A DNA stretch of 63,731 nt, counting the filler, from Hausera hauseri (Eukaryota): the NCBI GenBank assembly GCA_046269625.1. It is 12 parts of 12 records of this genome, joined end to end, with 100 filler letters (N's around TTAATTAATTAA, not from the genome) between each part and the next. Parts side by side here need not be neighbours in the genome. Positions count along the whole stretch, not along the records: positions 32,632 to 38,246 come from JBJURY010220297.1; 11 more parts are not named here. One strand, written 5' to 3'. The number at the start of each line of letters is the position of its first letter. Positions within the stretch are counted from its first letter, which is position 1. Shown piece by piece: positions 6,001 to 62,000 of the stretch. A program made the position numbers and the translations under genes. Below the pieces are notes generated by a model that did not search any database, was not told the DNA's origin, and was given only the letters and a program-made list of their open reading frames with translations.

Positions 6001-6164
6001 TGAGACGACTCAGACAAATCTCGTCAGACGATGAACATCACCCACCAATTGACGATATTCGATCGGATTCCAAATTGGTTCAGAAATCGTTGGAGTTCGA
6101 ACTCCATAAGTTGGTGGAGACATTGCAGGAAAAGGAGATGAAATTGGACAAATCTGTGAGCCAG
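1..6164 (+). CDS. Giant exon (5'-truncated by the window) of a large coiled-coil protein, giantin-like tail-anchored golgin
   Basis: The frame is open from nt 3 for >2000 codons of E/K/L/Q-rich heptad sequence. A donor CAG|GTAGAT at 6164/6165 lies just before the ORF-track stop and joins in phase 0 to the exon at 7639. Confidence 0.8.
2520..3055 (+). repeat. Three diverged ~40-aa internal repeats in the giant exon
   Basis: QTEISNLQLTELDKMLQTDELFASENIGNFTELTRNF (2520), QTEIDNSHIQDVDKMLQSDELFASENIDGFTEFIRNF (2697), QTDLCNLHLVEFDNLIKSHNFFISNNITDLNKFVKNF (2931). Confidence 0.85.
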
Positions 6165-6508
6165 GTAGATTTGATTTTGATTGATATTTAGGATGTTGAT
6201 TTACATAGTTCATGATTCGTCGGGGGGGTGCGGGTTGCGTGGGACGGGCTCTACATTCTTATTCATAATTAAACAATTTTTGTATTATCGCAACTTGTGG
6301 CATAAGTAACACGTGCAAATTTATACTTTGATAGAAATAATTCATTAACTTTGGTGCTGGTTGGAGTCTTACAAGTACAAAATTTTATGTTGATTACGCT
6401 ATATTGGCTTATGATGTTGCATCATTTTGCACTTCTACAATTTCCCCCGTATATGCCATATTTTGATGTTTTGTCGACCTAATAAATATCCATCTAATAT
6501 TTGACTAA

Positions 6509-8870: not shown

Positions 8871-11800
8871 TTCATGGTGTTGACTTCCATAGTGTGGTCT
8901 TTCATGGTGTGGACTTCCATACTATGGTCTTTTATGGTGGGTCATAAATAATGTGGTCTTTCATGGTGTGGATTTCCATACTATGTTCTTTGATGGTGAG
9001 GACTTCCATGATGTGCTCTTTCATGGCGTGGTTTTCCATGATATGGTCTTTCATGTTGTTGACATCCATAGAGTGGTCTTTCATGGTGTAAACTTCCACA
9101 CTAGGGTCTTTCAAGGTCGGTCATCAATGATGTGGTCTATTATGGTGTGTGCTTCCATGGTGTGGCCTTTCATTGTTTGGACTTCCATACTATGTTCTTT
9201 CATTGTCGTGACATCAATGATGTTGTCTTTCACGGTGGGGACTTCCATGATATGGACTTTCATTGTGTGAACTTCTAGGGTGTTTCCTTTTATGGTGTGG
9301 ACTTCCATACAATGGTCTTTCATGGTTGGGACTTCCATGATGTGGTCTTTCATGGCGTGGTCTTCCATGATATGGTCTTTCATGGTGTTGACTTCTATAG
9401 TGTGGACTTCCTTGGTGTGGCCTTTCATGGTGTGGACTTCCATACTATGGTCTCTCATGGTGGGTCATCAATGATGTGGTCTTTCATGGAGTGGACTTCC
9501 ATGGTGTGGCCTTTCATGGTGTGGACTTCCATAATATGGTGTTTCATGGTGGGGACATCCATGAAGTGGTCTTTCATGATGTCGACTTCCATGGTGTAAC
9601 CTTTCATGCTGTGGACTTCCGTATTTTTGTTTTCATGGTGGATACTTCTATGACGTGGTCTTTCAAGGTGGGGACTTCCATGATGTGGTCTTCCATGGCG
9701 TGGTCTTTTATCATATGTTCTTTTATGGTGTTGACTTCCATAGTGTGGTCTTTCATGGTGTGGACTTCCATACTATGGTCTTTCGTAGTGGGTCATCAAT
9801 GATGTGGTCTTTCATAGTGTGGACTTTTATGGTGTGGACTTTCATGATGTGGACTTCCATACTATGGTCTTTCATGGTAAGGACTTCCAGATGTGGTATT
9901 TCTAGGTAAAACATTTCATGATGTGTTCTATCATGGTGTGGACTTCCATGGTGTGGCCTTTCATGGTGTGGACTTCCATATTATGGACTTTAAGGGTGGG
10001 GACATCCATGAAGTGGTCTTTCATGGTGTGGACTTCCATGGTGTGGCCTTTCATGGTGTGGACTTCCATAGTGTGGTCTTTCATGGTGTGGACTTTTGTA
10101 CTATGGTCTTTTATGGTGGGTCATCAATGATGTAGTCTTTCATGGTGTGGACGTCCATACTATGGTCTTTCTTGGTGTGGACATCCATGAAATGGTCTTT
10201 TATGGCGTGGTCTTCCATGATATGGTCTATAATGGTTTTGACTTCCATAGCGTGGACTTCCATGGTGTGGCCTTTAAAGGTGTGGACTTCCATACTACGT
10301 TCTATTATGCTGGGGACTTCCAGATTTGGTATTTCTAGGTAGGGCTTTTTATGATGTCGTCTTTCATGGTGTGGATTTCCATGGTGTGGCCTTTCATGAT
10401 GTGGACTTCCATACAATGGTCTTTCATGGTGGGCACTTCCGTGATGTGGTCTTTAATGGCGTGGTCTTCCGTGACATGGTCTTTCATGGTGTGGACTTCC
10501 ATAGTGTGGTCTTTCATGGTGTGGACTTCCATACTATGTTCTTTCATGGTGGGTCATCAATGATGTGGTCTTTCATGGTGTGGACTTCCATTGTGTGGCC
10601 TTTCATGGTGTGGACTTCCATACTATGGTCTTTCATGGTGGGTCATCAATGATGTGGTCTTTCATGGTGTGGACTTCCATTGTGTGGCCTTTCATGGTGT
10701 TGACTTCCATACTATGGTCTTTCAGGGTGCGTACTTCCATGATGTGGTCTTTCATGGTGTGGTCTTCCATACTATGGTCTTTCATGGTGGGGACTTCCAT
10801 GATGTGGTGTTTCATGGTGTGGAGTTCCATGGTATGGCCTGTCATAATGTGGACTTTCATACTATGTTCTTTCATGGTGGGGACTTCCAGATTTGATATT
10901 TCTAGGTGGGGCTTTCCATCATGTGGTTTTTCAGGTTGTGGACTTCTATGGTGTGGCCTTTCGTGATGTGGACTTCCATACTATGGTCTTTCATGGTGGG
11001 GACTTCCGTGAAGTGGTCTTTCATGGCGTGGTCTTCCATGATATGGTGATTCATAGTGTTGACTTCCATGGTGTGGTCTTTCATGGTGTGGACTTTTATA
11101 CTATGGTCTTTCATGGTGGGTCATCAATGATGTGGTCTTCCATGGTGTGGACTTCCATGGTGTGGCCTTTCACAATGTGGACTTCTATACTCTGGTCTTT
11201 CATGGTGTGGACTTCCATGGTGTGGCCTTTCATGGTGTGGACTTTTATACAGTGGTATTTCATGGTGGGAACTTCCATGGTGTTGCCTTTCATGGTGTGG
11301 ACTTCTATACAGTGGTCTTTCTTGGTGCGGACTTTCATGCTGTGGCCTTTCATGGTGTGGACTTGTATATTGTGGCTTTATATGGTGTGGACTTCCATAC
11401 TATGGTCTTTCATGGTGAGGACTTCCATGATGTGGGCTTTTATGGCGTGGTCTTCCGTGATATGGTCTTTCATGGTGTTGACTTCCATATTGTGGCATTT
11501 CATGGTGTGGAATTCCATACTATGTTCTTTCATGGTGGGGACTTCCATGATGTTGTCTTTCATGGCGTGGTCTTCCATGATATTGTCTTTCATGGTATTG
11601 ACTTCCATAGAGTGGTCTCTCATGGTGTGGACTTTCATACTAGGGTCTTTCATGGTGGGTAATCAATGATGTGGTGTTTCATGGTGTGGACTTCCATGGT
11701 GTGGCCTTTCATGGTGTAGAATTCCATACTATGGTCTTTCATGTTGGGGACATCCATGAAATGGTCTTTCATGGTGTTGACTTCTGTGGTGTGGCCTTTC

Positions 11801-14243
11801 ATGGTGTGGAATTCCATACTAGGGTCTTTCATGGTGGGTAATCAGTGATGTGGTCTTTCATGGTGTGGACTTCCATGGTGTGGCCTATCATGATGTGGAC
11901 TTTTATACTATCGTCTTTAATGGCGGGCACTTCCGTGATGTGGTCCTTCATGGCGTGGTATTCCATAACATGGTTTCTCATGGTGTTGACTTCCATAGTG
12001 TGGTCTTTCATTGTGTGGACTTCCATACTATGTTCTTTCATGGTGGGTCATCAATGATGTGGTCTTTCATGGTGTGGACTTCCATATTATGGTCTTTCAT
12101 GGTGTGGACTTCCATACAATGGTCTTTCATGGTTGGGACTTCCATAATGTGGTCTTTCATGGCGTGGTCTTCCATGATATGGTCTTTCATGGTGTTGATT
12201 TCCATAGTGTTGTCTTTTATGGTGTGGACTTCCATACTATGGTCTTTCTTGGTGGGTCATCAAAGATGTGGTCTTTCATGGTGTGGAGTTCCATGGTGTG
12301 GCCTTTCATGTTGTGGACGTCCATACTATGGTCTTTCATGGTGGGGACATCCATGAAGTGGTCTTGTATAATGTGGACTTCCATGTTGTGGTCCTTCATG
12401 CTGTGGACTTCTATATTAAGGTTTTCATGATGGATACTTCCATGATGTGGACTTTCAAGGTGGGGACTTTCATGGTGTGGCCTTTCATGGTGTGGACTTT
12501 TATACTATGGTCTTTCATAATGGGGACATCGATAAACTGGTCTTTCATGGTGTGGATTTTCATGGTGTGGCCTTTCATGATGTGGACTTCCGTACTATGT
12601 TCTTTCATGATGGGGACTTCCAGATGTGGTATTTCTAGGTGGGGCCTTTCATAATATGGTATTTCATGGTGTGGACTTCCATGGTGTGGCCTATCATGAT
12701 GTGTACTTCCATATTATCGTCTTTAATGGCGAGCACTTCCGTGATGTGGTCCTTCATGGCGTGGTATTCCATGACATGGTTTCACATGGTGTTGACTTCC
12801 ATAGTGTGGTCTTTTATTGTGTGCACTTCCATACTATGTTCTTTCATGGTGGGTCATCAATGATGTGGTCTTTCATGGTGTGGACTTCCATTGTGTGGCC
12901 TTTCATGGTGTGGATTTTCATATTACGGTCTTTCATGGTGGGGATATGCATGAAGTGGTCTTTCAGTGTGAGTACGTCCATGATGTGGTCTTTCATGGTG
13001 TGGTCTTCCATACTATGGTCTTTCATTGTGGGGACTTCCATGATGTGGTGTTTCATGGTGTGGCATTCCATGGTATGGCCTGTCATGGTGTGGACTTCCA
13101 TACTATGTTCTTTCATGGTGGGGACTTCCAGATTTGGTATTTCTAGGTGGGGCTTTCCATCATGTGGTCTTTCAGGTTGTGGACTTCCATGGTGTAACCT
13201 TTCATGGTGTGGACTTCCATACTATGGTCTTTCATAGTGGGGACTTCCGTGACATGGTCTTTCATGGCGTGGTCTTCCATGATATGGTGATTCATATTGT
13301 TGACTTCCATGGTGTGGTTTTTCATTGTGTGGAATTTTATACTATAATCTTTCATGGTGGGTCATCAATGATGTGGTCTTTCATGGTGTGGACTTCCATG
13401 GTGTGGCCTTTCACGGTGTGGACTTCCATACTATGGTCTTTCATGGTGGGGACATTTATGAAATGGTCATTCATGGTGTGTATTTCCATTGTGTGGCCTT
13501 TCATGTGGTGGACTTCCATACTATGTTCTTTTATGGTGGGGACTTCCATGATGTGGTCTTTAATGGCGTGGTCTTCCATGATATGGTCTTTCACGGCGTG
13601 GTCTTCCATGATATAGTCTTTCATGGCATTGACATCCTAATAGTGGTCTTTCATGATCTGGACTTCCATGGTGTGGCCTTTCATGATGTGGACTTCCATA
13701 CTATGGTCTTTCATGGTGGGGACTTTTATGATGTGGTCTTTCATGTTGCGGTCTTTTATGATATGGTCTTTCATGGTGTTGACATCCATAGAGTGGTCTT
13801 TCATGGTGTGGACTTCCATACTAGGGTCTGTCATGGTGGGTCATCAATGATGTGGACTATTATGGTGTGGACTTCCATGGTGTGGCCTTTCATGGTGTGG
13901 ACTTCCATGGTGTGGCCTTTCACGGTGTGGACTTCCATAATATGTTTTTTCATGGTGGGGACATCCATGAAGTGGTCTTTCATGGTGTGGACTTTTATAT
14001 TGTGGCTTTTCATGATGTGGACTTCCATTTTGGTTTTCATTGTGGATACTTCCATGATGTGGTATTTCTAGGCGGGGCTTTCCATGATGTGGTCTTTCAT
14101 GGTGTGGACTTCCATGGTGTGGCCCTTTATTTTGTCGACTTCCATACTATGTTCTTTCATGTGGTGACATCAACGATGTGGTCTTTCACGGTGGGGACTT
14201 CCATGATGTGGTCTTTCATGGTGTGGACTTCCATGGTGTGGCC
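8871..14243. repeat. Minisatellite/satellite with 15-bp monomer (30-bp dimer CATGGTGTGGACTTC-CATGGTGTGGTCTTT) and higher-order structure
   Basis: The whole contig is tandem units. Recurrent variants include a 14-bp unit (catggtgggtcatc) and ccagat(t/g)tggtatttctagg. All frames give 5-aa periodic peptides. Confidence 0.95.
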
Positions 14244-18847: not shown

Positions 18848-21800
18848 TTAAACAGATCGGCTAAGGCCGTCAGCATTCAAATGTTCTTTTCCCGGCTTGT
18901 GAACTACCTGGAAATCATATGGCTGCAGTGCTAACGCCCAACGCATCAGACGGGGATTGGAGCTGGCGTTCGACCTTAACCATACCAATGGATTATGGTC
19001 CGTTACGATCGTGAATTTTTGTCCATCTAAATAGTGATGCAATTTTTTTACGGCGAAGATTATGCACGCGCACTCCTTTTCGGTGGTGGCGTACTTCCTC
19101 TCCGCGTCCGAAAATTTTTTACTTAAATAGACGATCGGGTGCTCCTCGTTTCTCTCGTTCGTCTGTGACAACACAACGCCCATCCCTGTATCTGATGAGT
19201 CGGTCTGCACTAAAAACTCACGCTTATAGTCAGGCGCATATAGGATCGGATCTTGCGTAAGCCTTTTTTTCAAAGTTTTAAAAGCCGCCTCGCATTCCTC
19301 AGTCCAGATAATCGAACCCTTCCTCATCTTCCCCCTTAAAGCAGTTGTTAAAGGAGCTGAGATAATAGAAAAGTTCGGGATATATTTACTGTAATAACCC
19401 GCGAGACCTAGAAAAGCGCGTATTTGCGTCTTTGACGTGGGAGTAGGGAAATCTATGATCGCCTGGATTTTTAACTCAGCGGGTTTGCGTGTTCCCTGCC
19501 CTACTATATGTCCAAGATACTTCACATGATCTTGAGCGAAGTGACACTTGGCCGGCTTGAGGGTTAATTTCGCCTTAGAGATACGCCCAAGTACGACATC
19601 TAAATGTTTGATGTGCGCTTCCCAACTATCAGAAAATACAGCTATATAATCAAGATAGGGAACCGCAAAGGATTCGCACTCCTTCAAAACTTCCGCCATA
19701 AGTCTGGAAAAGAAATATGGTGCGTTCTTCAAACCGAAAGGCATTTTTAAAGGACGGAAGGAACCAAACGTCGTAACAAATGCTGCTAGCCTTTGAGCCC
19801 TAGGACTTAATGGTATTTGCCAATACCCCTTTGCTAAATCGAAAATACTGATGTATTTCGCAGCAGATACCAGCTCGACTCTCTCTTCGATGTTCGGGAG
19901 CGGGTAATACTCGGTCCGAATGACGTCGTTTAGCCGACGGTAATCGATACACGGCCTCGGATCTTTAAATGGCGCCTCAACGAGTATCATAGGAGAAGTA
20001 TAATCGGATTCTCCAACCTCAATGATCCGCAAATCCAACATTCTTTTTATCTCCGCTCTCAATATCTCATTCTGCCGCTGTGAAGCGCGATAGGGTTTCG
20101 CTCGAACGGGCTTGTCGCTAATGAGCTCTATATCATGAGTGACTAAATCCGTTACACCGGGGTCGTTCGAAAAACTGTTAGAATACCTATCGAGTAAAGC
20201 CTTTAGCTCTCCTACCTGCTTCGGGTTTAGTCGCTCTATCAAACGGTCCTTCTCAACTATTGCCTCAAATTCATAAATGTTCGGGTTGGTTTCCAAGCAA
20301 GGGAAATCTACCTCACTGTTGGCAACCCCTTCCCAATCCTCATTGCAAGTTAAATAATTGACCATTTCAGGTCTTTTATAGTACGGTTTAAGCATGTTTA
20401 TATGATAGATCTGAGAGGCGTCTTCTCTCCCGGGTAATTTCACCACATAATTGGTATCCGATATTTTAGACTGCACTTCGCCTGGCCCTTTCCATTTCGC
20501 GGATAATTTATTACTCCTGGAGGTAGCGAATATCAGTACCAGGTCCCCTTCCCGGAATTCTCGTTTTACGGCATTTTTATCATACCATATTTTTCGGTGA
20601 ACCTGTACCTCTTCCATCCTCTCTACCGCCAACTCTTGACACCTTTTTAATCTATTGACCAATTTGAACACATAATCCGTGACTGGATCTTCTTCATCAC
20701 TAGACTCCATCCATCGCTCGTAGAGCAAAGTTTCTGGAGTTCTCAGGTTCTTCCCGTGCACAAGCTCGGCTGGCGAGAAACCTGTACTCACGTGTGTCAC
20801 AGTTCTCAGTGCTAAAAGTGCCAAAGGTAGCTGTTTTTCCCAATCCGGACCTGCTTCCACGCACAAAGCCCTCAGTAGTCTTTTTAAAGATCGGTGAAAT
20901 CGTTCCACTGGGTTCGTCTGTGGATGATGGACAGAACTGTGTCTAATCCGAATTCCGAATTTTTCAAAAAATTCCGTGGTGAGTGCGCTCGTGAAAGACT
21001 TGCCCTGATCGCACTGCACCTCCCTAGGGAACCCTAGCCGACTGAAAATATTTAATAACGCGTCTATCACCGACACGGACTTAATATCCTCAACCGGTAT
21101 AGCATCCGGATATTTGGATGACATACAAAGTGCCGTAATTATATATTTCTTCCCACTCGGGGTTTCGGGTAAGGGCCCGCATGCATCAATATTGACCTTT
21201 GTAAACACTTCGGATATTACCGGCACTAATTTTAGGGGCGCCTTCTTAAGGTCGTTGGACTTCCCCGCCCTCTGGCACTGATCACAGGTGCGGACGTACT
21301 CCTCGATTTCTTTATAGCATCCTGGCCAAAAGAAATAACGAGACAAGCGATCCTTCGACTTAGTGACCCCCAGATGCCCCGAAGTCCCCTCGTGACATAC
21401 TGCCTTTATCTGGTTCCTAAGTTTATCGGGTACCACTAACAATTTTTTGTCGTTCCCCAAACGGTCTTCCTGGTGTTTTACTAAAACGCCATTCTCAATT
21501 ATATACATCTTTTTCGTGAGTCGCTCCTGTGGGACACTAGCTAGGTCATAAATATTTTTTAATGAGGCACTTTCCTTCTGCATCTGAGAAAATTCAGACC
21601 TACTGATTTTGGGGAGTGATAATTCGTCGACTTCGGAAATTTCGGGTAAAATGATCTCTGGTGTCTCATCAGTACATTCAATATCTATTTCCCCTTCAGT
21701 GTTTTCCTCGTTTCCCACCAAACTATTTGCGCCCACATCTGCATCTCGCTCTTTTATTCCCCTCTGGGATCGCGTTTCTACTGCATTCATCATTACCGGG

Positions 21801-22126
21801 GTTTCCACTCCCCTTTCTGCCTGGCCATCCTTAATTCTCTCCGCTGTCCGATTACTTAAAATATATCGCCCAGTGTCCAGCTCATTTCCGACGACAGCTG
21901 CAAAAGTATCAACCTTCCCAAATTTTCCCGTTAACGAAACTCTAGCTATGGGTAAACATCTGGCTTCGGTGTCCAGTGGCTGTTGTATCCAAAGAGTCTC
22001 TCCGGTCAAATTATCTGAGGTGATATATTTTCTGCAGACCAGGTCAAAAGTCGCGCCCGTATCCCTTAGTAATGAGATGGGGTGTCCATTTACTGTTCCC
22101 TCCGATAAGAAAGGGGCTAAAAGTGC
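18848..22126 (-). CDS. pol: Pol polyprotein (PR-INT-RT-RH); RT YxDD reads YLDY
   Basis: The 1053-aa ORF-track ORF stays open upstream through the protease DTG motif to a TAG at 22127-22129. Confidence 0.9.
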   Translation of the reverse strand, partial: ALLAPFLSEGTVNGHPISLLRDTGATFDLVCRKYITSDNLTGETLWIQQPLDTEARCLPIARVSLTGKFGKVDTFAAVVGNELDTGRYILSNRTAERIKDGQAERGVETPVMMNAVETRSQRGIKERDADVGANSLVGNEENTEGEIDIECTDETPEIILPEISEVDELSLPKISRSEFSQMQKESASLKNIYDLASVPQERLTKKMYIIENGVLVKHQEDRLGNDKKLLVVPDKLRNQIKAVCHEGTSGHLGVTKSKDRLSRYFFWPGCYKEIEEYVRTCDQCQRAGKSNDLKKAPLKLVPVISEVFTKVNIDACGPLPETPSGKKYIITALCMSSKYPDAIPVEDIKSVSVIDALLNIFSRLGFPREVQCDQGKSFTSALTTEFFEKFGIRIRHSSVHHPQTNPVERFHRSLKRLLRALCVEAGPDWEKQLPLALLALRTVTHVSTGFSPAELVHGKNLRTPETLLYERWMESSDEEDPVTDYVFKLVNRLKRCQELAVERMEEVQVHRKIWYDKNAVKREFREGDLVLIFATSRSNKLSAKWKGPGEVQSKISDTNYVVKLPGREDASQIYHINMLKPYYKRPEMVNYLTCNEDWEGVANSEVDFPCLETNPNIYEFEAIVEKDRLIERLNPKQVGELKALLDRYSNSFSNDPGVTDLVTHDIELISDKPVRAKPYRASQRQNEILRAEIKRMLDLRIIEVGESDYTSPMILVEAPFKDPRPCIDYRRLNDVIRTEYYPLPNIEERVELVSAAKYISIFDLAKGYWQIPLSPRAQRLAAFVTTFGSFRPLKMPFGLKNAPYFFSRLMAEVLKECESFAVPYLDYIAVFSDSWEAHIKHLDVVLGRISKAKLTLKPAKCHFAQDHVKYLGHIVGQGTRKPAELKIQAIIDFPTPTSKTQIRAFLGLAGYYSKYIPNFSIISAPLTTALRGKMRKGSIIWTEECEAAFKTLKKRLTQDPILYAPDYKREFLVQTDSSDTGMGVVLSQTNERNEEHPIVYLSKKFSDAERKYATTEKECACIIFAVKKLHHYLDGQKFTIVTDHNPLVWLRSNASSNPRLMRWALALQPYDFQVVHKPGKEHLNADGLSRSV

Positions 22127-24159: not shown

Positions 24160-27100
24160 TTCAATTTAATCTGCAACATATGTAATATGTCTGGTATGTT
24201 TATACTTGCGTAAAGTTCTGAGACAAAATAACAAGAACAACAAGAACAAGAACAAGAACAACAACAACAACAACAACCGGTAGGAAACGCCAGGCCTTAA
24301 CACGTCTTGACGACTTAACCAGAAACAGTACCTAGCAGCGGCAGCAGCATCAGCAGTAGCAGCAGGAACAGCATCAACAAGAAGAACAAAAGGCCTGTAT
24401 TCCCAACATTACAGTCAAGTACGACCTGAACAGATCGTACGTGAACATGAAAGTGGACATGTCGGCGAAAACAACAGTAACAACGCAATTGAAGGATGTA
24501 CCCGCTCATGTGCGTAACCGATTGGAAACAGAGGTGGCCAAATTCCAACAGTACCACTGTCACTACCACCACTGCAAAGTGCAATATTATGCACTTGCAG
24601 AATTTGAAAACGTTGAAGGTGACAGGAAACAGTGGGACCTGTCACATCGAGCCGTACCGTATTCCGACGAATTTATTGCCGACGTAGGCAAGATGCTCCA
24701 GGATAAAATCGCCAACTACACGAAAAAGGGTAGTGGATGGCGAATTATACGAATTGTCACTCTCGGCCTTATCGTAACGAAGTCGAGTGACAATATATTT
24801 GTCCGGGCGATCATTCATACCGATACCTGCAGCTCTGAAGCAGTCTCTGGCGGTAGTGAATGTAAAAAATACTAACGACGGATACTGTTTTCTTTACAGT
24901 ATTCTGTCCGTATTGAAATAAGACGAAGTGGACAGACATAGTGCATCTAGTCCAAAACAGTATCAGAAATATTTTTCCGAATTGGATTTCGATGAAAGCT
25001 TGATGCCGATAAAACTGAAATCCATTTGAACGGCGTAATCTGACAATGGCAATAAATGTGCTGCGGTACAACACAATCGTAGAAATACCGGCGGATAAAG
25101 AAATTTACAAAAACCCTCATGTGGATATAATCTACCGTAGTCGGAACCCAAATGGTTGCACAATAAATTTGTTGTTATTGGAGCAAAAGGAAAAATTCCA
25201 TTACGTTTCAATGACAAATCTGGACAGACTGTTAAATATGGATCACCGTCAGTTTGTCGAAAAGCGTATACAATGTAAATGGTGTCCTGTATGTCTGCAC
25301 GGATTCAAATCAGAGACAACATGGGAGAAACACGTGACTCTGTACAGACAAAATTCAAAGGGAACCACCATGTACGTAATGCCACTCAAAAGGGAGCTCC
25401 GATTCGGTGACTGGTCAAAAATGGATAGTCGGGCATACGTTGTATATGTCGATATCAAAGCTATCTTACCATGGCACAACATACATGACCAAAAACATGT
25501 TCTAATTGCCGTCGGTATGTTGTTTGCCCCAATAAAAGCCGCAGGTCAACAGCAATATTACGTTTTCATGGCTGAAACTGAGTACTCTATTTCCTGCATC
25601 AGTTGGAAACAATAGTAGAAACGAAAGTCGCACCCTGGTACAGTAGAAGTAGCAATAAACCCTTGATGTGATCAGATGAAGATGAACGCCTGACGTTTGC
25701 AATCACGGATTAATGTTATCTGTGCCACCACAAAATATTGCCGTTTGATGCGCAGGAACGGCTCGTAGCGGACCGTGATCATTTCACCAGTCGATATCTG
25801 GGAGCAGTATGCAACTCATGCAATTTGTCAAGGTGTGTGCGGCCATTCCTACCGGTGATATTTTATAACTTCCGGGATTATGATTGTCAGAATATTCTGA
25901 AATGAGCAATCAGTGGATTTCCACACTGGGAATTATCCGTAATTCCAACAACGATGGCGAAGTACTTGTCTCTATCGGCACGTATAAACTGGTTTCCAGT
26001 ACGGTTTCTTGACTCATTGCAGTTCATGAATGAGTCTCTAAAAAAGCTCGTAACTGCCTTGCCGGATGTGCCGATAACACTGACGCAGTTTCCTGCGCAT
26101 ATTGCACGCAGCAAAGGCATATTCCCGTATGACTTTGCTGTGTAATATGAGCGGCTTCAGACAACAGAGGAATTGCCGCCACAATAAACCGGAATCACAC
26201 AGGAGGAGTACCACAGAGTACAGGAAGTGTGGACTAATCTCGGCTGCAGAAACATTTTGGAGTATATGCTCCAGTACCTGAAACTGGACGTGCACTTGCT
26301 GTCCGACGTGTTTTAGGTATTTTGTGCTAAGGCGTTGGCGGAAGATAGGCTGGAGCCGCTTAATTTTTACTCCATACCGGTGATGAGTTGAGCATCGGCC
26401 CTAATGTCGCTGGACAGGGAAATTGAGCTACTGCAAGACCCGGAAATGTACCGACTATTTGATGTTGGTAATCTTGGCGACATGACGTTTGTTACCAAAT
26501 ATCACGTAACCAGTGATAATACTACGTCAGTGTTGTAAATCGATATTCGCAACCCTTTCCATACGGTTTATTTGAATGGGTTGTTGAAACACCGGAATTG
26601 GATGAATTAATGGACAGTTTTACAGCAGCAGCAGCAAACACGACAGAAAGCAGAGCAGTAAGCTACCTTATGGAAGTTTATCTCGTGGTACCAGATGAGC
26701 TTCATGACGCTTTGGACGAATTATCCGGGGCACCAATCAGATAATGTTTACCCGGCGGCTCAACAAAATTAAAATAACTGCTCAAGACTCATGAACCGAA
26801 GCTGAATTACATGGTTCATTGGCGTCTGCTGCAGTTTTACATGCAGTTGGGTGTACGTGTGACGCATCACACAGTTGCATCATGCAATCCGCTTCAATCA
26901 GGCCCAATATTCAAGGCGTACATGGATGGAAATTCTGGGAAACGATCCGCAGCGTGTACAAAGTTCGAAAAGGACTATTACAAGTTGAAAAATAATTTTC
27001 TTTACGGCAAAGCAGTAGAGAACCTCAAGAAGCGGCTCACTGTGCGCCTATGCAACAACGAAAAGCGGCTGGTTACGTACACCAGCAAGGTCCTGTTCAG

Positions 27101-27748
27101 GCGGTCAATGCACATTGCCGACGGATTAGTCGCAGTGCTTCTCAAGAGGGAAGAAGTAAAATTGGACCGGCCAAGCTACATCGGAAAAGTAGTACTGGAC
27201 CTGAAAAAGTTGCGCATGTACGGGCTCCAGTATCGCGACTTGGCACGTTATCGGCAAATGTTCGGCGACGGCTGTGAGATCAGTATCGTTGCCGGTGATA
27301 CAGACAGCTTTTTCTTTGAGCTAAAAAACGTCGATCGGAACCAGCTTCTCTGACAAATGATGGCAGATGGACTACTTGACACTTCCAACTACCAGTCGAA
27401 TCATCCGCTGTACAACAACGCGATAAAAAACAAAATCGTCTGCTTCAAGAACTAAAGCGAAGGCCGGGTCCAGTACAGGGAATGGATATTTCTACGCCCA
27501 AAATGCTACAGTCTTCTGACGGATTGTGGGCCGAAAATGCATGCAAAAGGCATCCAGGTGAAACAAACGGAACTATGTCACGGTGATTATCGCCGCGTCT
27601 ATGATGGACAAGAAGAATAAGGAACAGGAGGAAAGGTTGTTGTGTCTCAAACGACCATACGATCGATTGAGTACCAGCTATATAAAATCACAAATAGAAA
27701 GGTTGCTTTGTCATGCAACGATGACAAGCGAAAGTGGGTGGGGCAGAA
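24160..27748 (+). pseudogene. Degenerate protein-primed family B DNA polymerase of Polinton/Maverick (adintovirus-like) type
   Basis: Ordered motifs across frameshifts: KGSGW, CFLYSI, HYVSM, CPVCLHGF, DRDHFTSRYLGAVCNSCNL, FYNFRDYD, RFLDSLQFM, KGIFPYDF, YLKLDVHLLSDVF, KLKNNFLYGK, PSYIGKVVLDL, GDTDS, DTSNY, PKCYS, KGI. Confidence 0.92.
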
Positions 27749-30800: not shown

Positions 30801-31530
30801 CCCTTTGAGGAAAATCGAATAATAAAAATAATCTCCAGTGAGCAAACCAAAGACGAAGCCATGAGAAAGGCACATATAGAGCATTGCGTTGGAAGGATCA
30901 TGGGACTTCAGGATGCTGCAATGTACTTTGAATACTTACAGACTGATGAGGATAACCCTCAATACGATAAGAATTTAGTCCCACTAAGCGAAACCGCACC
31001 ACCGATGAAAGCGAAACGGCCGGTAGGAAGACCAAGAAAAATAAAATAAATCGACTATAATGCGCATCTGATTAGAGAATTGAGATAACTATCGGTACCT
31101 AACCCAAGTTCCGATAACGAAGAATTGATTGAACTAATGAGACATTTGATAAGGATAGTCAACTATACCGGACTCCAAGGCGACATATTATCCGAGAAGG
31201 AAAGACTAATATATAATATAGCACGGACAATGAAGGCTACACAATTTAAATTATCTAAAAGCACCCTGCCTGACGAAACATTAATCGATAGAATTATGAT
31301 GAATAATACGATGGAGGAACTAAGGAAAGTCTTGATATACTTAGCAGTAAGAACTAACTCCCTCGGGGAAAAAGAATTAAACTAGACAATTGGGTTAGCT
31401 AGAAAAGCTGCTAAAAGGGTACCTAAAAAATAAAATGGACTAAATTATTTGAAAAGGAGGACAATACAAGAAGGATCAATAACTTAGAGGACATAGTAAA
31501 AAATATCTCTCCGAACAAAGGGAGCAAATC
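27849..31530 (+). pseudogene. Decayed long A-rich, K/E-rich reading frame(s) of unknown function upstream of a viral-type glycoprotein; contains an AT-hook-like motif
   Basis: Six co-oriented, closely spaced ORFs. 29874-30161, 30168-31049 and 31125-31385 share one frame broken by isolated stops. KRPVGRPRK at ~31015-31040. Confidence 0.55.
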
Positions 31531-31534
31531 CAAC

Positions 31535-32531
31535 TGGTTAATCAACTTACCGACGATAATGATGCTAGTTAAGCAGATGGGAGTAGTCACTATATATGAC
31601 TGGAATAAATTCAAGGTGGATCAGAAATATTCCTTGATTGGCTTAGAAACATGTGAAGATGCGAGACCCCATAAGCTCTAGACAGTAGAGAAAAACTACA
31701 TACTATATAAACAACGTGAATGAATCTGAATGGATACAACGGAGTGTATGGTACGAAGATTTTGCAGCGTATTTTATTGTGGCAATTGCACGGCCATTTT
31801 TTGATAATTAAACCAACAACACCATTAATTTTGTTAAATGTAGGTAGACAACACTGTTTAGGAGCCCGGACAACCGATAAAATGGTCTGGAACGACATGG
31901 AATTGTAAGCCCAAGAAGGGAAAATAATTAGAGCCTACAAAGCGGCAATAGGAAAATTAAATATGCTCACCGGTTACTGCGTCGGAGCGGAATACAATAC
32001 GGGAAAAGTAATAGAAAGAGGAATATTAGTTGTAGATTTTTATGAAACCGAGTTAAGATCCTTAAAAGCGATGTTTAATAGTGTTACCAAATTATTCACC
32101 GAAAGTCAAAAATGTCAGATTCAAGACGGTGCTTGTATGCTCCGAAGTTCAGTCATTGTATGGAACCCACCTTCCAAGAGAGACTGCAATTTCATCAAGA
32201 TAAAAGAGTTAAAGTTTAATGAGACAACCGGAAAACGTTATACAAATAAATTACACACAAATACCAGATCAAGGGAATATGTTGTAGAACATCTCACACC
32301 AACGATATTGATATCGGATGCACACGGACTGAAGTTTATTAGAAAGGATATGTTAACACGCTGCGATGTAGTTGTGTATGCGACAAATTACGAAGCATTT
32401 TTCGTAGCAGAATCTGAAATCAACATAAAAACGTATGATTTAAAAACGCAAGATATACGGATTGAAGATTACCTCAAAATATAAGTAACTATTTTTATTA
32501 CAAAGGACAAACCGGAATAGCAGAACTATAC
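31535..32531 (+). pseudogene. Chuvirus-G-like (class III/gB-related) fusion glycoprotein N-terminal half, degenerate
   Basis: Hydrophobic leader, then IYDW...YSL...C (cf. AYDC..SL..C), FYCG, GxxxxxxGYCVGAEY, CQIQDGACxxxxSVIVWxxxxxxxC, CDVVVYATNYEAFFV. The cysteine pattern was recognised by eye. Confidence 0.65.
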
Positions 32532-33190: not shown

Positions 33191-33595
33191 TCAGACAGAT
33201 CTGTTGGTGAATTTCGTTGGTCTTGACTGGTTACTCGGGCTTGTGTCCAAATTGTAACTATGGTAAGGTTTGATCTGAACAATTCGTGTGTAACTCTCGT
33301 CGGAGTAGTTTTTCAATTCCGTGACCTCTGCCCGATACACCGGGCATGTTGTCTTCCCGTTGTCGAGTGTCCACTTTTCTAGGCAATCTCGACAGTATTT
33401 GTGGCAGAAATTTTTATTATCTAAAACTACATAGCCTTGCCTTAGGTTTGCATCACATACGGAACATTCGCTATCTTCCTTGTCCCAATTATCTCTATCC
33501 AAGTCAACTTGAATAATTAGTTCGATGGGTTTGAACACGAGACCATCTCCGTCTTGATACAGATATCCATGTATCACCTTTTGTTTGTGGTTCAT
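33191..33595 (-). CDS. RING-finger (C3HC4-like) protein within the LTR element
   Basis: CSVC-x16-CHKYCRDC-x12-CPVYR; the last Cys reads Tyr and the x-H spacing is slightly irregular. Confidence 0.75.
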   Translation of the reverse strand: MNHKQKVIHGYLYQDGDGLVFKPIELIIQVDLDRDNWDKEDSECSVCDANLRQGYVVLDNKNFCHKYCRDCLEKWTLDNGKTTCPVYRAEVTELKNYSDESYTRIVQIKPYHSYNLDTSPSNQSRPTKFTNRSV

Positions 33596-33997
33596 AGCGC
33601 TTTTCCGAGGGTCACAGTTTACTTGGATCTAGGTCCAATATGACATGAGATCTTTATCTAGGTCGGGAATCTTCCATTCTATTTTATATTTCTGGTATTG
33701 TTTCTTTAGCAATATTTGAATTTTTTGAACGGTTCTTTTTGAACGGAAGACTGATGTGAGGTAAGTTCCTAGCTTGGAATTCGCCCATGCGTAGATGTTC
33801 TCAAAGACTTCTCTTGATGGAGCAAGTTTGATGAAAAACGGCTTTTCTTATTATCTTTTTACTGTAATATTCGGTGGTTACCAGCATTGTGGGAAAATCT
33901 TGAGCTGTTCTGCAATGTACGTTTCCTTTTATTCTCTTTCCTATCAAGGCGTTAATTTCAGTTATTATGGGACTCTTAATTCCCCTTTTTAGCAATT

Positions 33998-35477
33998 CTA
34001 TTTTCTGTGAGGTACTTGGCCTGTTTTGTTGGTTCTCCACTTTTTTTCATCATCTTCTCTTTTCTTCTTGAATAGATAGTTATAAATAGATGATGTCTCC
34101 TTAGGTTGGGATTTCTCTTCTAATTTTGGTTTCTTAGTCGTTACTTTCAGTCTCGGTTCTCCTCTTTGTTTCTTTGGTGTAATGTTGCATTTATTTTTCG
34201 TTTGTAAGTCAGTTTTGTTTTCGTCTTGTTTTTCCATGGGTTCTTGTAGTGTAACCATAAGGCTGTGTGTACTTGTGAGCTGGATGGTTCTGGCTGGGAA
34301 ATAAGGCTTGATATTTTTTCTATATTCGGTTTTTATTGTTTTGGGTTTTAAAGAACTACACAGATTATACGTGGCATCTCTGGGAGCCCATTCATGTTCC
34401 CATTTTAAAGATTTGTAACTTTCTTGCAAATATTTGGAACGTTGGCTGGTTGTTAGAAGTCTTGAAATTCTGCTTGAATTACTATTCATTGATTCAATCA
34501 TCAACTTGAAGAAGGCTTCCGGTGTAATCGGCCTATTTCTTCCTTATACGGTATTTTCCATTCCTTTCTGGACCATCGGATGAGTAGCTATTTCCCTAAG
34601 TCCGGCAATATTTCCATCGGATATCCCTAATAGCTCGATTTCCCGTTTTACGTTGTATCCCGTTATCATGCACCCGTAAAGGCAGTAGTCTAACTCGGAA
34701 CGGACCTGTAGAATGTCTTTTCCGCTTATAAGTTGTTCTTTTCTTAACCAAGTTACTTCCGCATATGATTCTTGAACATGTTTACGGAGGTTTATAATGG
34801 TAGAGTAAAGCTCAGTTCCATCTGTTTCTCTGATAGATACTTTGATAGATATCCCATACTCATCGTCTCCTCTTCCACAATTTATCGCCATTATTCTTAT
34901 GTTACGACCAACCTGTACTTGCCCATGTGGTTGGTGGTGTTCGTCCTTCTCCGCTTCTGTTGGGGTTTGTTTGAATTCTAGTACTGGCAAGCCTAAGTTG
35001 CAGTTTTCTCTATGTATCACCTCAAACATGAGTTTAACAGGGAGGGTCGCTATTCTAAATTCTAGACCATGATTGATACTTTCTAGGCCTTATCCGCTTA
35101 TTTTGAATGTATTAAATCGGTATTGGCGGCCTTTATTACAGTTCCATCGTTGGTTCTCTATTCTATAGTATACTTCTCCGTCAGCTAGATAGATAAATAT
35201 ATCTTCCACTTGGGCGATCATATTCCGGATCAGTTCCTTAAGGCCGTACGATTTAGCTTGATTGTTTTCGCGCATCGCGTATAGGATAACTGTGCGGTTC
35301 TCTTCGGTGGCACCTTTCAAGTCATTTGGTATTTCGTTTACTTTCCGGTATTGGACGTACATTTCTGTTTGTTATGCGTCATTTATCCTTCTGTATATGG
35401 CTTTCGATTTGTGAATGAAGACTTGCATATTCTTGTAGGAATTCGTCTATTCTAATTCGGTTGATCATACTTACCAT
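33998..35477 (-). pseudogene. Accessory ORF with an ISG20/REX4-like DEDDh exonuclease fold, catalytic residues altered
   Basis: ORFs 35362-35090, 35029-34544 and 34504-33998 are one frame broken by single TAA codons. Motifs: IMAINC, KVSIRETDGTELYSTII, VTWLRKEQL...VRSELDYCLYGCMITGYNVKREIELLGI, REIATHP. Confidence 0.6.
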
Positions 35478-35507
35478 TCTGAAAGAAAATACAAAATAAG
35501 GGTTAGT
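35469..35507 (-). promoter_or_regulatory. Splice acceptor directly before an ATG, immediately followed by a consensus donor
   Basis: Minus strand: gACTAACccttattttgtattttctttCAG|AATG|GTAAGT. Confidence 0.7.
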
Positions 35508-35576
35508 CCTAAAACAAAGTACTGTTCTAAATCTGAACCAAGTCTTTGTTTGGTAAAATAACCCGATCTGTAGTTG

Positions 35577-36990
35577 TCAGGTTATTCCATCATTGATTTT
35601 TCTCTCTGGTACCATCACCTTTAAGTCTCTCTCGGTGATTTTAGGGCGTTCATTATAACAGTTTTTGGTAATCAATCGACAAAACACAATTAAAGTTATG
35701 AGAGCAAATATTGATGTTACCGTAATTAATATTACTGATAAAGTTGTTCCTTTAGTTAGTTTTTCAGTTCCAACGGTAGTCGAGATTTCGCTTTTCGTTT
35801 CGTCATCGGTCAGTGGTTTCATTAAGACGATCTGGTTTAAAGTTCGTACCGTAATGGTTTTCCTTTGTCTATTTTCTGCACTTATTTGTATAACGTAGTC
35901 TGTTTTATGTTTCAAGTAGATACATTTGATTCGACGACTGCCTTTAACCAATGTTACCTTCTAATTATTATGCACTGCTCGGCAGTTTATTTCTACATCA
36001 TAATTAAGTGCTTCTTGCACCACGAACGTTATTTCATGTTGTTGTGCCCAATATTTTATAGGAATTATTTCTAGCTCCTTTTGAGATAATCCACTCGTCG
36101 GAGTGATTCTGGTGGATATAGAAGTGGTAGTCTTTGCTTTTGTAATTCTACTCGTTATCCTGCGCGGAACTTGTCCGATTGTATTTTCCAATTGGTAACT
36201 TCCTAAATAAATACTTGACTTGTTCAGTCGAACTTCATAAAAGTCTAATTGAATCATATATTTGTCTTTCTGGGGTAAGTTGCACCATCTCTTCGGTCGT
36301 TCGACGTCAATTTGACAGTATTGTTGGTCCGGAGCTGCTTTGTTCTCTTTTATGAATTGAACTGTGATTACTCACCCCTTAATTAATCGCCCTTTTGTGT
36401 TTATTTGAACACAGTTTTCCTTCGGATTTCCCGTTATACTGGCTATATTTTCTTGTAGCATACGTTTTAATGGGTCGTTGGATTGGAGCATATCTTCCAG
36501 CTCTATCTAAAGGTAGTCTCCATAAGTCCGTGGTATAACTAAACGTAAATTCGGTTTTATTTCGGCGTGTACATAATTACAATTTGGCAAATGCGAACGA
36601 TAACTGAGAGCGTAAGTGTCCGTATTCTACGTTGCATCAACTAGTATCATCTTCTGGTTCGAAAGTACACTTGGACTCGGCTCGGTTTAGCCACTCCTGA
36701 AGTAGTATTTGAATTCGACTTTTATATGGTCGTAGTAACCTAAATCCGACACAGTGCTTCTGCCGAAAAATAATCTAATTCTATTGCTCGTAAAAACTTT
36801 TCGTCTTTTTTGCCCGATTTGTGACTGAAACTTTCTTCCTTTTGTGACAATGGTTTCAATCCTCTTTTCCTGATTCAATATACATCGTTCAACGAAGTTT
36901 CATCTACCCACCATTGGGCATTAGATTTGGGTGTTAAAACCGCAATCAATGATAATGCTACTATTATCTGTGCATAAGATACTGGTCTAG
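35577..36990 (-). pseudogene. Type I membrane protein in the env position (signal peptide, Cys-containing ectodomain, FN3-like domain, TM), degenerate
   Basis: QIIVALSLIAVLTPKSNA/QWW is in frame at the end of integrase. LKHKTDYVIQISAENRQRKTITVRT fits the FN3 LxxxTxYxIxVxAxN pattern. TM TLSVILITVTSIFALITLIVFC. Confidence 0.6.
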
Positions 36991-38246
36991 TGACAATCGA
37001 CGAGGTTTTATTTTCTCGCGGTCTTAGACTGTAGTGTTTAGTTGGTCTTATATCCGTTTTAACTACTCTTTGAATCGATACGACTTCCTCTTTTCCACTT
37101 TTGTTAACATAGACTGTAGTTGGCGCTGTGCGGGTGATTTCATAAGGTCCTTTCCCGGTACGTGTTAATTTAAGAGATGCACCTTTCTTCGCGACAGAGT
37201 AATGTATATAAACCCAATTTCCCTTTTCCAGATTATGAGGCTTAGCCTTTTTATCATATTGTTTTTTAAATTGTTCCTGATATTCAAGCAACTTCCCAAC
37301 ACCTTTGCAGTCTTGTCTGTAAGGCTTAGGCAAAGTTTTGCTCGAGATCCTCGAAGTTCTTTTCGTACGGTGTCATACCTAGATCTTCAGGTAAGATTGC
37401 TTCTTGTCCATACATCATAAAGAACGGTGTAAACCCTGTTGCGGGATGGGGTGTCGTATTGATGGCGAATTGTGTTCCTTCTAGGAATTCATCCCAATCT
37501 TTTTGGTATTTTGTCACTACTGTTGATAATATCCGAATAACTTTTGCGTTCATTCGCTCGACCACCCCATTACATTGGGTGATACGCGGTAGTAGTTAAA
37601 CGTTTGATTTCAAATATTTTGGTAATTTTTTCAAATAATTCGCTTATGAAGTTTCTTCCTCTGTCTGTTAAGATTTGTTCTGGTGGTCCGTATCTGCGGA
37701 TAATTTTTCTTACCACTGCGTCGGCTAAAGTTTCTGCTTTTTGATATAATAGTGCCATTAGTTCGACGAAGTTCGTTAGTTGGTCTACGCATGTCAGAAT
37801 GTATTTGTTATTTTTGTGAGTTTTGGGCAAGAGTCCTACTATATTCAGACATAGCTTGCATGGGCCTATCTGGTACGTTTATGGGTTTTAATTCTGCTAC
37901 GTAACCTTTCGTCTTCTTCTGTTTTGTTGCGAACACTTCGCATGCTCCTACCCAATTCCTTACATCAATATAAATACTTGACCAGTGATATTTATTTAAT
38001 ATCCTTTCCAATGTCTTCTTCCAAGACATGTGTCCGGCTAAATATGAATCGTGCTCAGCCATGAGTACTTCTATGCGCAATCCTTTTGGAATAACCATTA
38101 GTCTTCTTCCTTTCCACTCGTAGTATAGGATATTATCTTGGTTCGATGCGCGATATTTATGTTCGTGTTTCTGTAGATACTTTTTCAGTTGCCGTCCTTT
38201 TGGTATTTTGTTATTTTGTATAAACTCGATGATTTTCTGAATAACC
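36991..38246 (-). mobile_element. Ty3/Gypsy integrase (degenerate), same family as 59063-63731
   Basis: HDSYLAGHMSWKK...C, NNKYILTCVDQLT, ILTDRGRNF, TTAYHP, VERMN, NTTPHPATGFTPFFMMYG, GKGPYEI. Confidence 0.93.
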
Positions 38247-38346: not shown

Positions 38347-38676
38347 TTGTAGTTGCTCTTGTTGCAGTTGCTGTAGTTGTTTTAGTTGTAGTTGCTGTAG
38401 TTGTAGTTGTTGTAGTTGCAGTTTTTGTAGTTGTAGCTGTTGTAGTTGTAGTTGTTCTAGTTGTTGTAGTTGTAGTTGTTGTTGTTGTAGTTGTTGTTGT
38501 TGTAGTGGTTGTTGTTGTTGTTCTTGTAGTTGTTGTAGTTGTAGATGTTGTAGTATTAGTTGTTGTAGTTGTTATTGTTGTAGTTGTTGTTGTTGTATTT
38601 GTTATTATTGTAGTAGTATTTGTTGTGTTTGTAGTTGTTGTTGTTGTTGTTGTAGTTGTTGTGGTTGTTGTTGTAG

Positions 38677-38716
<40 letters not shown>

Positions 38717-38979
38717 AGTTGAAGTTGTTGTTGTTGTAGCAATTGTAGTTGTAGTGGTTGTAGTTGTAGTTGTTGTAGTTTTAGTTGTTGTAGTTGTATT
38801 TGTTGTATTTGTGGATGTTGTAGTCGTTGTTGTTGTAATTGCTTTTGTTGTAGTTGCTGTTGTTGTTGTTGTTGTTGTTGTATTAGTAGTAGTAGTTGTT
38901 GTTGTTGTTGTTTTTGTTGTAGTTGTTGTTGTAGTGGTTGTAGTTGTAGTTGTTGTAGTTGCTGTTGTTGTAGTTGTCG

Positions 38980-39019
<40 letters not shown>

Positions 39020-59062: not shown

Positions 59063-62000
59063 GGTACAAACCAGTATCAACAAGTAACTACAGAAATACT
59101 ATACAAAATTTGGAAAATCCGGAAGCTGTATCTGGATTTTTAGAGGTATACTTTTAGGACCGTTAATCAAACCTGTAATTTAAGTAGTAATAAATGGATA
59201 CGAGATATTTACGTTAACTGGATTTTCATGTAAAATTTTAACCGCAATTATGACACCGTTTGGAAAATTTTTGAAAGCTTATGAAGGAAGCAAGTGGAAG
59301 GCGGAAGTAGAGCTATATATCGGCTATCATAATCCTAAACCANNNNNNNNNNCTAAAACTTACATTTTTTTAGAGCCTGTCAACAAGCGAGAGTGAATGA
59401 CAAAAAAAGACAACAGGCTAATATAGGCTCTGCCCGCACAAAGAGGGATGGGTTCCGCTGGCTATGAACAATAGCTTCTGTATTATTTAGAAAACTGCTT
59501 GATGGTCGCGGAAAAGGCATGCATATGACGAACGACGCTTTAACTACCACTTAGTTTACGGGACCAATGCAAGGCACGATACTGAACACAGCAAAAGTTT
59601 GAACTAATCTCAGACAAGAAACGAAAATGAGGAAAAATAATTCCTATGATGACCAGCCTAAGGAAAGAGAAGCAATTTCTAGAGTAAATAGTCACAAGAC
59701 GTATTCCGTCATAAAAGCCGCATTGCCCATGCTTTCGCCAACTGTACCAGTCTACGAAGGTTGTGACAAACGATAGATTAGTTCGTACCAAACGGAAATC
59801 TATAGAAAACCATTCAGTTTTAAAGATCCCTACGAAGGAACAAAACAGTATGGAGTCTTAGGAATACTGCACAAAAATAGAGAAAATTCTGCGTCCCACC
59901 ACCTACAATCGGTGGATAATCATAAAATGTTATACTCTCCAAGAGTTCGTGGAAATACAGAAACCAGACCAACCGTCTGGGGAAATCAAAGGATGCAAAG
60001 TTTTCGAAATATAGAACCACGTACGAATAACCGAGAACCACTAATCAGTATTCATGAAGCAGAAGATTCGAACATCGAAACCAATGAATAATACCGAAAT
60101 GGAGAACTAAGACAACTGTCTGAAAACATAGTATCCTCCCAGAAATCAGAATAAACGGCCACAAAATATCGGCAATTAAACGCCCAAATCCGCATCAAAT
60201 TGTTTCGGAACAGTAATAGAAGGAAGACCCTTGGCCAAAGTCACTATTGAAGATTGGGAAGTTTACGCTCTTATCGACACAGGTTCTGAGACGTCTCATA
60301 TCAAAAACGATTAAGTTCCACAAGCATTAAGAGGACAGTTGTATCCACCATCAACAAGAAACCCCCAGAGCACAGGAACTTTTGACGAAATGTCGAAACC
60401 GATGTTCAAATAAAACCCAAAAGTTCATATTGTTGGACAATCTTTCCATCACGAATTTCCAATTATGGAACAATTAACTGGCGATATAGTTTTAGGCTGA
60501 AACTTACTGAAAAGACAACCGAATGTAGCAATAGACTGGCAAGCATGAAAGCTAATATAGATTGGTCCGATAAAAGGAGTAAAACCCACTAAAGATAGGA
60601 AATTTGGAGAAGTATGGATTCCATTAGACGAAAACATTCCGTTTAGAACAGAGATGATAATTTACGCGCAATTTCAACAAGATGATGACCAAGCAGTATA
60701 TTTCGAACCAAAGCAAACGTTAAATCTGAGCATAGTACACAGAAATATATTGACAAGAGTAAACTCAGGTCGTGTACCGATAAGAATAGCAAATAATGCA
60801 CCAACCTCAGTCAAGCTATATGCTCACACTACCTTGGGAAATACTTATAACGTGTTACCTATAACTGCTGAAGAAAAACCTTATAAATATACCGAATTCC
60901 CATCTCACATTGAAACTAAGTTTTCACCTGAATCCTACTGTCGCTTCTATGAATTGTTATGCCGTTATAAATCAATTATCGATAAGGACGATGAAGATAT
61001 TGGCAGACCTAAGGCTCTAAAATTGACCATTCCGCTTAAGAAAAGGCCTGGTTCAAACGAGGAAATAGATCCTGAAAATCAGAAGTTGCCGAAATGGTAT
61101 CCTCCACGTCATTCGCTGAAACCCGAAATAATAAAACAAGTTGAACGAATGCTTAGAGCAAAAAGAATTATACCCAGTTATAAATATTGAATAATCTTAT
61201 GATGACGAATTCTTTCCAATTGTCATCAATAAAAGAAGTTCTAGACAGGCTGTCAGGAGCAAAATGGTTTACCTCTGTGGACTTACAATCCGGATACTGA
61301 CAAATAGAAATTGACCACAAAGACGTTATAAAACAGCGTTCAAAACACACGATGGTGTTTGCGAATTTAACGTTATGCGTTCGGCATTACAACAGGACCG
61401 ACCATTTTTACAAGAGTGATTAATAAAATGTTTGCATACTTAGATGATGTAATGATAGCGTCAGAAACAGAAGAGGAACATTTGAAGTATATCGAAGGTT
61501 CACTAATGCGATTAGAACAAGCAGGACTAAAACTGAACCCAAAAAAATGCAAACGGGCTCAAAACGCCGTATGCTACCTTGGTCGTAGAGTCGGAGAAGG
61601 AGGATCGAAACCAGACAAATTATTATTAAACAAAATATCAAATTGTATGGAGCCACAAAATCAGAAGTTACGACGCTAGCTAGGTTTATGTGGGTATTAC
61701 GCCACCTATGTGCCAGTTATCTCAAAGGTAAATGCATGGTTGTATCGCCTACTTAAGAAAGGAATTAAATGGAAATGGACAGCTGTCGAACAAAAAGCTT
61801 TCGACGAAATGGAGATCTAAAAAAGCGAACCAGTTATAAAACACCCTGACTTTAACTTACCATTCATAATTAAAACTGATGCCAGTAAGGAAGGTATTTG
61901 ATTTGAACTAGCCCAGAAAAGAGAAGATGGAGAATTGGAACACCCAACTGCATATTGAAGTCGCTAGTTAAAGAAAGCCGAGAAAAATTATTCCGTTAAA

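Follow-up and report, generated by a model that had tools for sequence, protein, structure and literature searches.

A possible 4-nt micro-exon at the head of a decayed nuclease-like RING gene in a likely Gypsy-type LTR element of Hausera hauseri

The element and its splice-like spacer

In the genome of Hausera hauseri (GCA_046269625.1), a decayed retroelement carries a branch point, a splice acceptor, the four nucleotides AATG, and a consensus splice donor in immediate succession, at the head of ORF pieces that end in a RING finger. The question raised by this locus is whether these signals enclose a micro-exon and, if so, which message they serve. An earlier note had proposed a start-codon micro-exon whose donor could pass the ATG to a downstream ORF such as the RING, giving alternatively spliced subgenomic mRNAs. 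The signals lie on the A-rich minus strand of a 5.6-kb contig (32632-38246; JBJURY010220297.1) within the window, the 63,731-nucleotide stretch of DNA analysed here. The window is composed of short contigs joined by N44-TTAATTAATTAA-N44 linkers, and contigs adjacent in it need not adjoin in the genome.

Read along the minus strand, the contig contains a broken integrase, a membrane ORF in the position of env, a 100-nt spacer bearing the motif, the ORF pieces ending in the RING, and a purine run followed by TGTAAC; the 5′ half of the element is absent. The contig starts in the integrase (36878..38245, minus strand), the end of pol, where Pfam detects an H2C2 zinc finger (Integrase_H2C2, E 5e-15) and the rve core (E 1e-11), as in Ty3/Gypsy integrases. 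The integrase DNA is 68% identical to that of a sister contig with the order RT-RH-IN (62349-63498), and since RT stands before IN in the sister, the decayed element is likely a Gypsy-type LTR element whose RT would lie outside its contig. This sister Gypsy pol (59353-63731, plus strand; RT then IN) is itself decayed, and the window ends ahead of its 3′ genes. At the other end of the element, a putative polypurine tract followed by TGTAAC indicates a likely 3′ LTR start at ~33101, with the LTR continuing to the contig end (32632..33110, minus strand). This candidate (33110-33100) is the sole one of five purine-run+TG matches located after the last ORF, and the C-terminal end of P0002, a relative of the accessory protein, has a peptide similar to that at the putative tract. 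No second LTR copy was found within the window, and an Rfam scan of the contig returned no matches.

Three-frame translation places a broken type I membrane ORF (35577..36990, minus strand) between the integrase and the spacer. It has a signal-like start in frame with the pol end and a hydrophobic anchor near its C-terminus, both segments being judged by eye. Searched with X at stops and with its N-terminal piece left out, it had no Pfam or PDB match, such as one to the baculovirus F-type env of errantiviruses, save a sub-threshold dUTPase match. The ORF is env-like by position and is a putative env.

Elsewhere in the window, an intact 1092-aa pol frame (18851-22126, minus strand) has Gypsy-type Pfam domains with the integrase ahead of RT and RNase H, a Gmr1-like domain order. 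An A-rich contig (27849-32531, plus strand) contains ORFs of 100-295 aa, those scanned having no Pfam match above the cut-off; one ORF on it is glycoprotein-like by eye (31427-32484, plus strand), and acceptor-like sites occur at 29345 and 30753. An uninterrupted 296-aa fragment of a ribonucleotide reductase large subunit (48261-49148, plus strand; Pfam E 1e-87) possibly derives from a DNA virus insertion. Fragments resembling, by eye, a Polinton-type protein-primed DNA polymerase lie at 24360-27350 (plus strand), the scanned pieces having no Pfam match, and a 2062-aa open frame with a coiled-coil-like start (3-6188, plus strand) has no Pfam match at E 0.01. Degenerate tandem repeats make up two contigs, 8871-14243 and 38347-45638.

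The motif occupies the spacer between the env-like stop and the accessory gene, where the earlier note had read it on the minus strand. Its branch point, pyrimidine tract, and acceptor (35479..35506) begin with CTAAC at 35506-35502, the branch A lying 24 nt ahead of the acceptor G; the tract (35501-35482) is AG-free, with pyrimidines at 17 of the 20 nt before the CAG acceptor (35481-35479). Directly behind follow the putative 4-nt micro-exon AATG (35475..35478), which holds an ATG in this copy, and the 5′ splice-site consensus GTAAGT (35469..35474), which has no partner acceptor in this copy. If unspliced, the ATG at 35477 does open a peptide, of 32 aa, beginning MVSMINRIRIDEFLQEY. On a crude consensus score built from approximate frequencies, the acceptor ranks first among the 395 AGs of the contig's minus strand (10.0 bits vs 3.5 for the runner-up), and the donor ranks second among its 232 GTs. 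The contig's highest-scoring donor, at 36375, overlaps one of the premature stops in the env-like reading frame; as a possible decay product, it was disregarded. The spacer therefore contains the signals of a U2-type micro-exon (branch point, pyrimidine tract, YAG, an exon of 3-27 nt, GTRAGT) and lacks its partner site: as the earlier note had observed, the 3′ flank of the donor offers no good acceptor up to the putative 3′ LTR, its best AG scoring 3.0 bits. On the antisense strand of the element, strong donor consensus sites occur at 37391 and 33761 (plus strand; 8.9 and 8.8 bits).

The motif is more than chance. With thresholds chosen after the site had been seen, dinucleotide shuffles of the contig produced an acceptor with a branch point in 32 of 3000 cases and the same with GTRAGT close behind in 1 of 3000, and shuffling the spacer alone never yielded the acceptor-donor pair (0/20000). 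When all 99,912 non-repeat bases on both strands were shuffled, the pair appeared in 6 of 200 shuffles. Taken singly, the signals are less striking: GTRAGT alone occurs at chance level (1855/3000 shuffles), and strong acceptors alone number 14 in the window against 9.5 expected. Because all four splice signals arose in just 929 of 200,000 synonymous draws (0.46%) that held the peptide and the element's codon usage fixed, coding alone fails to explain them.

The accessory ORFs are one decayed gene

The pieces downstream of the spacer had been taken for separate accessory genes. A single tblastn match of P0002, however, spans them (aa 64-842 to window 35434-33179, RING included; 36% identity, E 1.6e-140), so that the "accessory ORFs" are one broken gene of ~750 codons (33191..35477, minus strand). 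Internal stops interrupt its main frame 14 times, with 10 of these in a cluster at 34000-33850, and near 35.42 kb a break in the frame sets the MVSM...IDEF peptide apart from the rest. That peptide lines up by position with I-D-D-F-F-Q of P0002, to which it appears to correspond; by itself the sequence match is weak (E 0.18), and the peptide had no match to P0003. Because the RING is the end of the same gene, a splice to reach it is unnecessary.

The middle of the gene encodes a DnaQ/DEDD-like exonuclease domain without its first acidic motif (34570..34900, minus strand). In an hmmsearch of alignment A1 against PDB, the matches were DnaQ 8h18 (E 1.3e-4), PolC 2p1j (E 0.002), and, more weakly, SDN1 and ISG20L2. 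Atlas assigned the domain to RNase_T at 0.91, with an arenavirus nucleoprotein cluster likewise at 0.91. There was no Pfam match for this domain, phmmer of P0001 against PDB gave 0 matches, and AlphaFold on the 3-row alignment reached a pLDDT of 31. The resemblance to DEDD (DnaQ-like) exonucleases does not extend to the acidic catalytic residues. The first acidic motif has no D or E in any of the three sequences (window, P0002, P0003) in either register, and at the Asp of the second the window has Glu and P0002 has Met, the position falling past the end of P0003; a later motif is unaligned. Since the first acidic motif is missing in all three sequences, the protein is likely a pseudo-nuclease, and its DEDD-like domain is likely inactive. 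The C-terminal domain of the same gene is a C3HC4-type RING finger (33338..33469, minus strand; Pfam zf-RING_2, E 4e-6), found in P0002 at aa 747-790.

Splice signals in two relatives

Few relatives of the accessory protein were found. A HMMER scan of 1.84 billion cluster representatives, with the 181-aa middle piece as query, gave three matches, of which two were retained as true relatives: P0002, which is intact at 870 aa, and P0003, which is apparently partial at 333 aa. The third, P0004, was dropped as a bacterial RTX-repeat protein similar through its repeats only. Word-indexed protein searches added nothing new (P0001, 0 of 3127 candidates; P0002, only itself among 4979; short forms of A1, 0 of 92). 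Viral locus scans for relatives gave 0 pattern matches and then 0/72 and 0/94, and metagenome locus scans gave 0/245 and 0/269.

As called, both proteins continue upstream across the matching region. Where the window reads F-R-M-V-S, a stretch rich in Phe leads in P0003 to R-L-V-S and in P0002 to L-A-K-V-S. The V-S dipeptide is thus at the matching place in both, and in place of the ATG P0002 has Lys and P0003 has Leu. The relatives' splice sites were derived from amino acids by back-translation, in which each offset was scored for how likely the underlying DNA is to contain an acceptor and, 3-12 nt behind it, a donor; there are two relatives, and the pattern had first been spotted by eye. Over the whole of P0002 the top site (17.1 bits, 5 nt, aa 19) falls at the matching N-terminal spot, as does that of P0003 (17.5 bits, 4 nt, aa 23), and shuffled N-termini reached the top site in 1 of 300 and 2 of 300 cases, respectively. 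Among the controls, three ORFs peaked at 14.0, 6.8, and 8.6, and the window's own site scored 20.3 with the correct 4 nt. The signals are again less striking singly, the acceptor of P0002 being third in its protein and the donors ranking 2/2601 and 2/990.

Since the best site lies at the matching place in both relatives and Lys or Leu replaces the ATG, the acceptor-donor pair looks conserved and the ATG does not, with a micro-exon length that would vary from 4 nt (P0003) to 5 nt (P0002). Of the AG, ATG, and GT whose conservation the earlier note had proposed to check, acceptor and donor are compatible with both proteins, and the ATG is absent from both. A start-codon micro-exon is not a conserved feature, and one that feeds another ORF is not supported, given that the ATG is not kept and the gene is continuous.

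In each relative a Met stands 2-3 residues ahead of a conserved I-D-x-F, and the stretch from V-S to I-D-x-F is 37 and 45 codons long, against 8 in the window. As expected for an intron, the segments after V-S show no likeness in the two proteins (3080 of 5000 shuffles reach the same score), and the next 40 residues are alike (0 of 5000). A candidate second acceptor in P0002, 85 nt past the donor, scores 7.8 bits, a value reached at 5 of 2590 positions; that of P0003, 83 nt on, is weak at 4.0 bits, three other positions in range scoring higher. Compared with the N-terminus in the window, that of P0003 is similar (35/5000 shuffles) and that of P0002 is not significantly so (1940/5000); by eye, the latter could be a hydrophobic leader. 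What an ordinary intron does not predict is that long frames are open before the Met in both relatives. These extend over 54 and 67 codons, with chances of about 0.01-0.02 and 0.002-0.013 that are biased, since closed extensions would never have been reported by a gene caller.

Alternative readings and known systems

The preferred reading, held tentatively at a probability of about 45%, is that the acceptor serves to make a subgenomic mRNA for the accessory gene and that GTAAGT is a family-conserved donor bounding a non-coding micro-exon of 4-5 nt. The acceptor would be joined to a donor of the absent 5′ leader, removing gag-pol-env; for intact relatives, a further short intron is then predicted, which would start at the second donor, span about 83-85 nt, and end shortly before the Met, and U1 bound at this donor may also help to define the acceptor. 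In the decayed copy, translation of the (broken) protein would begin directly at one of two in-frame ATGs, 35477 or 35468. This copy is 87-111 nt shorter than the relatives between V-S and I-D-x-F, and because it is shorter there and has no second acceptor, its donor appears to be orphaned. Of the subgenomic splicing proposed in the earlier note, the spliced mRNA survives as the likely use of the acceptor, in a layout that recurs at protein level in both relatives, and the hand-over of the ATG does not.

The acceptor could also be real and the donor never spliced, GTAAGT either merely belonging to the Met-Val-Ser with which the accessory protein begins or serving as a U1 landing pad that tunes acceptor use. 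This is rather unlikely. In its favour, the donor of this copy has no partner acceptor, and ATG-GTA-AGT shares the reading frame of the I-D-E-F start. GTRAGT by itself occurs at the rate expected by chance, V-S codons yield it in 14% of draws, and an exon island of zero length is described as enhancing neighbouring splicing only if its 5′ splice site is intact (PMC9929638). Against it, both relatives have V-S at the same offset after a residue other than Met; a lost start codon is unlikely because P0002 is intact over 870 codons, and P0002 also offers a candidate second acceptor. The notion that the micro-exon lends its ATG to another ORF farther downstream, for instance the RING, in the manner of deltaretroviral shared start codons, is largely refuted and must be considered highly improbable. 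BLV splice forms do share AUGs (PMC1839114), and just ahead of the RING fragment, at 33629, stands an AG of matching phase, but this AG scores -2.3 bits and is part of an in-frame stop, the RING forms the C-terminal end of the accessory gene itself, and neither relative has the ATG. It is very doubtful, too, that a T-rich intergenic patch of a decayed element came to resemble splice sites by chance. The window-wide shuffles that contain the pair, the excess of strong acceptors, and the post hoc thresholds allow for it; the position of the site exactly at the gene head, its failure to arise in any spacer shuffle, and the matching site in both relatives speak against it. Trans-splicing to the acceptor and an internal promoter, for which the contig has a TATA-like match at 36060, were also considered.

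Another explanation takes the spacer for a coding linker, in which UGA readthrough would produce a membrane-anchored nuclease-RING fusion and the splice-like signals would be a by-product of Phe, Val, and Ser codons. The env-like ORF ends in TGA (35579-35577, minus strand) followed by CAR-YYA, the readthrough context of tobacco mosaic virus (PMC2194720), and the whole (35571..35579) is in frame with the first peptide of the downstream gene, so that stop, context, open frame, and 3′ structure together form a putative programmed readthrough site. Only 7 of the 5095 stop triplets in the window share this context, the env-like stop among them, and 33 open codons lead from it to the first peptide, a distance open in 1798 of 20000 shuffles. 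A 65-nt stem-loop is predicted to start 12 nt past the stop (35500..35564, minus strand; z -2.97), its 3′ arm pairing with the branch-point motif. A competing hairpin within 35595-35545, which shares one arm with it, would cover the stop instead (z -4.32). The 80 nt at 35586-35507 are the most structured of 277 contig windows (z -4.99), the readthrough motif and the fold windows having been selected after the fact; folded over 201 nt, the entire spacer fell short of significance (z -1.16), which was reached in sub-windows only. Folds constrained to keep the branch point unpaired gave -26.3 kcal/mol, against -23.1 when the stop was left open, and the MFE fold buries the stop itself, which tells against readthrough. 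The long open extensions in both relatives would suit a coding linker, yet these linkers are not conserved as protein, one further frame of the spacer is likewise open, and synonymous coding so seldom generates all four splice signals. As the sole explanation, readthrough is unlikely; it could coexist with splicing. Combining both, the 100-nt spacer might act as a three-layer switch, with a readthrough fusion, hairpins that compete for stop and branch point, and a micro-exon that makes the free dead-nuclease-RING protein. This is a long shot; if true, RNA binding and the ubiquitination of partners could be among the roles of the free protein, perhaps in counteracting silencing.

Spliced 3′ ORFs are already known in Gypsy elements. 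Among retroviruses, short middle exons are known as well, that of deltaretroviruses being far longer than 4 nt. Like the double splicing of BLV tax/rex, in which spliced and unspliced products are described as having the AUG in common (PMC1839114), the present locus combines an acceptor, a short middle exon, and a second donor near an AUG; in BLV the AUG is needed, whereas the ATG of this locus is absent from the relatives and a third coding exon is lacking. In Drosophila errantiviruses, env mRNAs are spliced, and the springer subclade is reported to splice on only the AU of the start codon (bioRxiv 10.1101/2023.08.03.551782). As in these Gypsy-type elements, a 3′ ORF would be reached via an acceptor just upstream. 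However, in errantiviruses it is env that is reached by splicing, and the 5′ end supplies the start-codon piece, whereas here the acceptor lies after the env-like ORF, would serve a further gene, and has a donor 4 nt behind it. The closest counterpart in exon length is MPC1, in which a 4-bp exon is spliced and its strong 3′ and 5′ sites are described as an exon-definition island (PMC9929638). MPC1 is a host gene, its exon is coding, and its branch points are distant (-63/-68; PMC9929638), in contrast to the branch motif at -24 in a mobile element seen here.

For the gene itself, the bdelloid rotifer LTR elements Vesta and Juno similarly carry an extra DnaQ-superfamily nuclease ORF after pol, a DEDDy exonuclease ORF3 that is typically expressed from spliced messages (PMC5408684). 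As described there, the Vesta and Juno nucleases are RNase D-like, retain their catalytic residues, and replace env, whereas the present domain best matches the DnaQ/RNase T type, is fused to a RING, follows a membrane ORF, and lacks the first acidic motif in all three sequences. The giant Gypsy elements of planarians, Burro, also combine env homology with captured RING and ubiquitin-related domains, but within one huge ORF1 polyprotein, and the available text of PMC6431247 contains no micro-exon. Readthrough is known at the gag-pol junctions of retroelements (PMC2194720). The stop and CAR-YYA in frame with a downstream ORF resemble those of tobacco mosaic virus (PMC2194720); the difference is that the predicted fusion would have a membrane protein as one partner and a nuclease-like RING protein as the other, and that the site would overlap splice signals. 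In a partial literature search, neither a micro-exon of 4-5 nt within an LTR element nor an LTR-borne fusion of a dead DEDD domain with a RING turned up, and no retrotransposon micro-exon coupled to recoding was found either.

The locus illustrates that fragments of a single decayed gene can pass for several accessory ORFs. If the preferred reading is confirmed, the element would have gene control resembling that of complex retroviruses, and its accessory protein may, speculatively, act on host RNA silencing or ubiquitin pathways.
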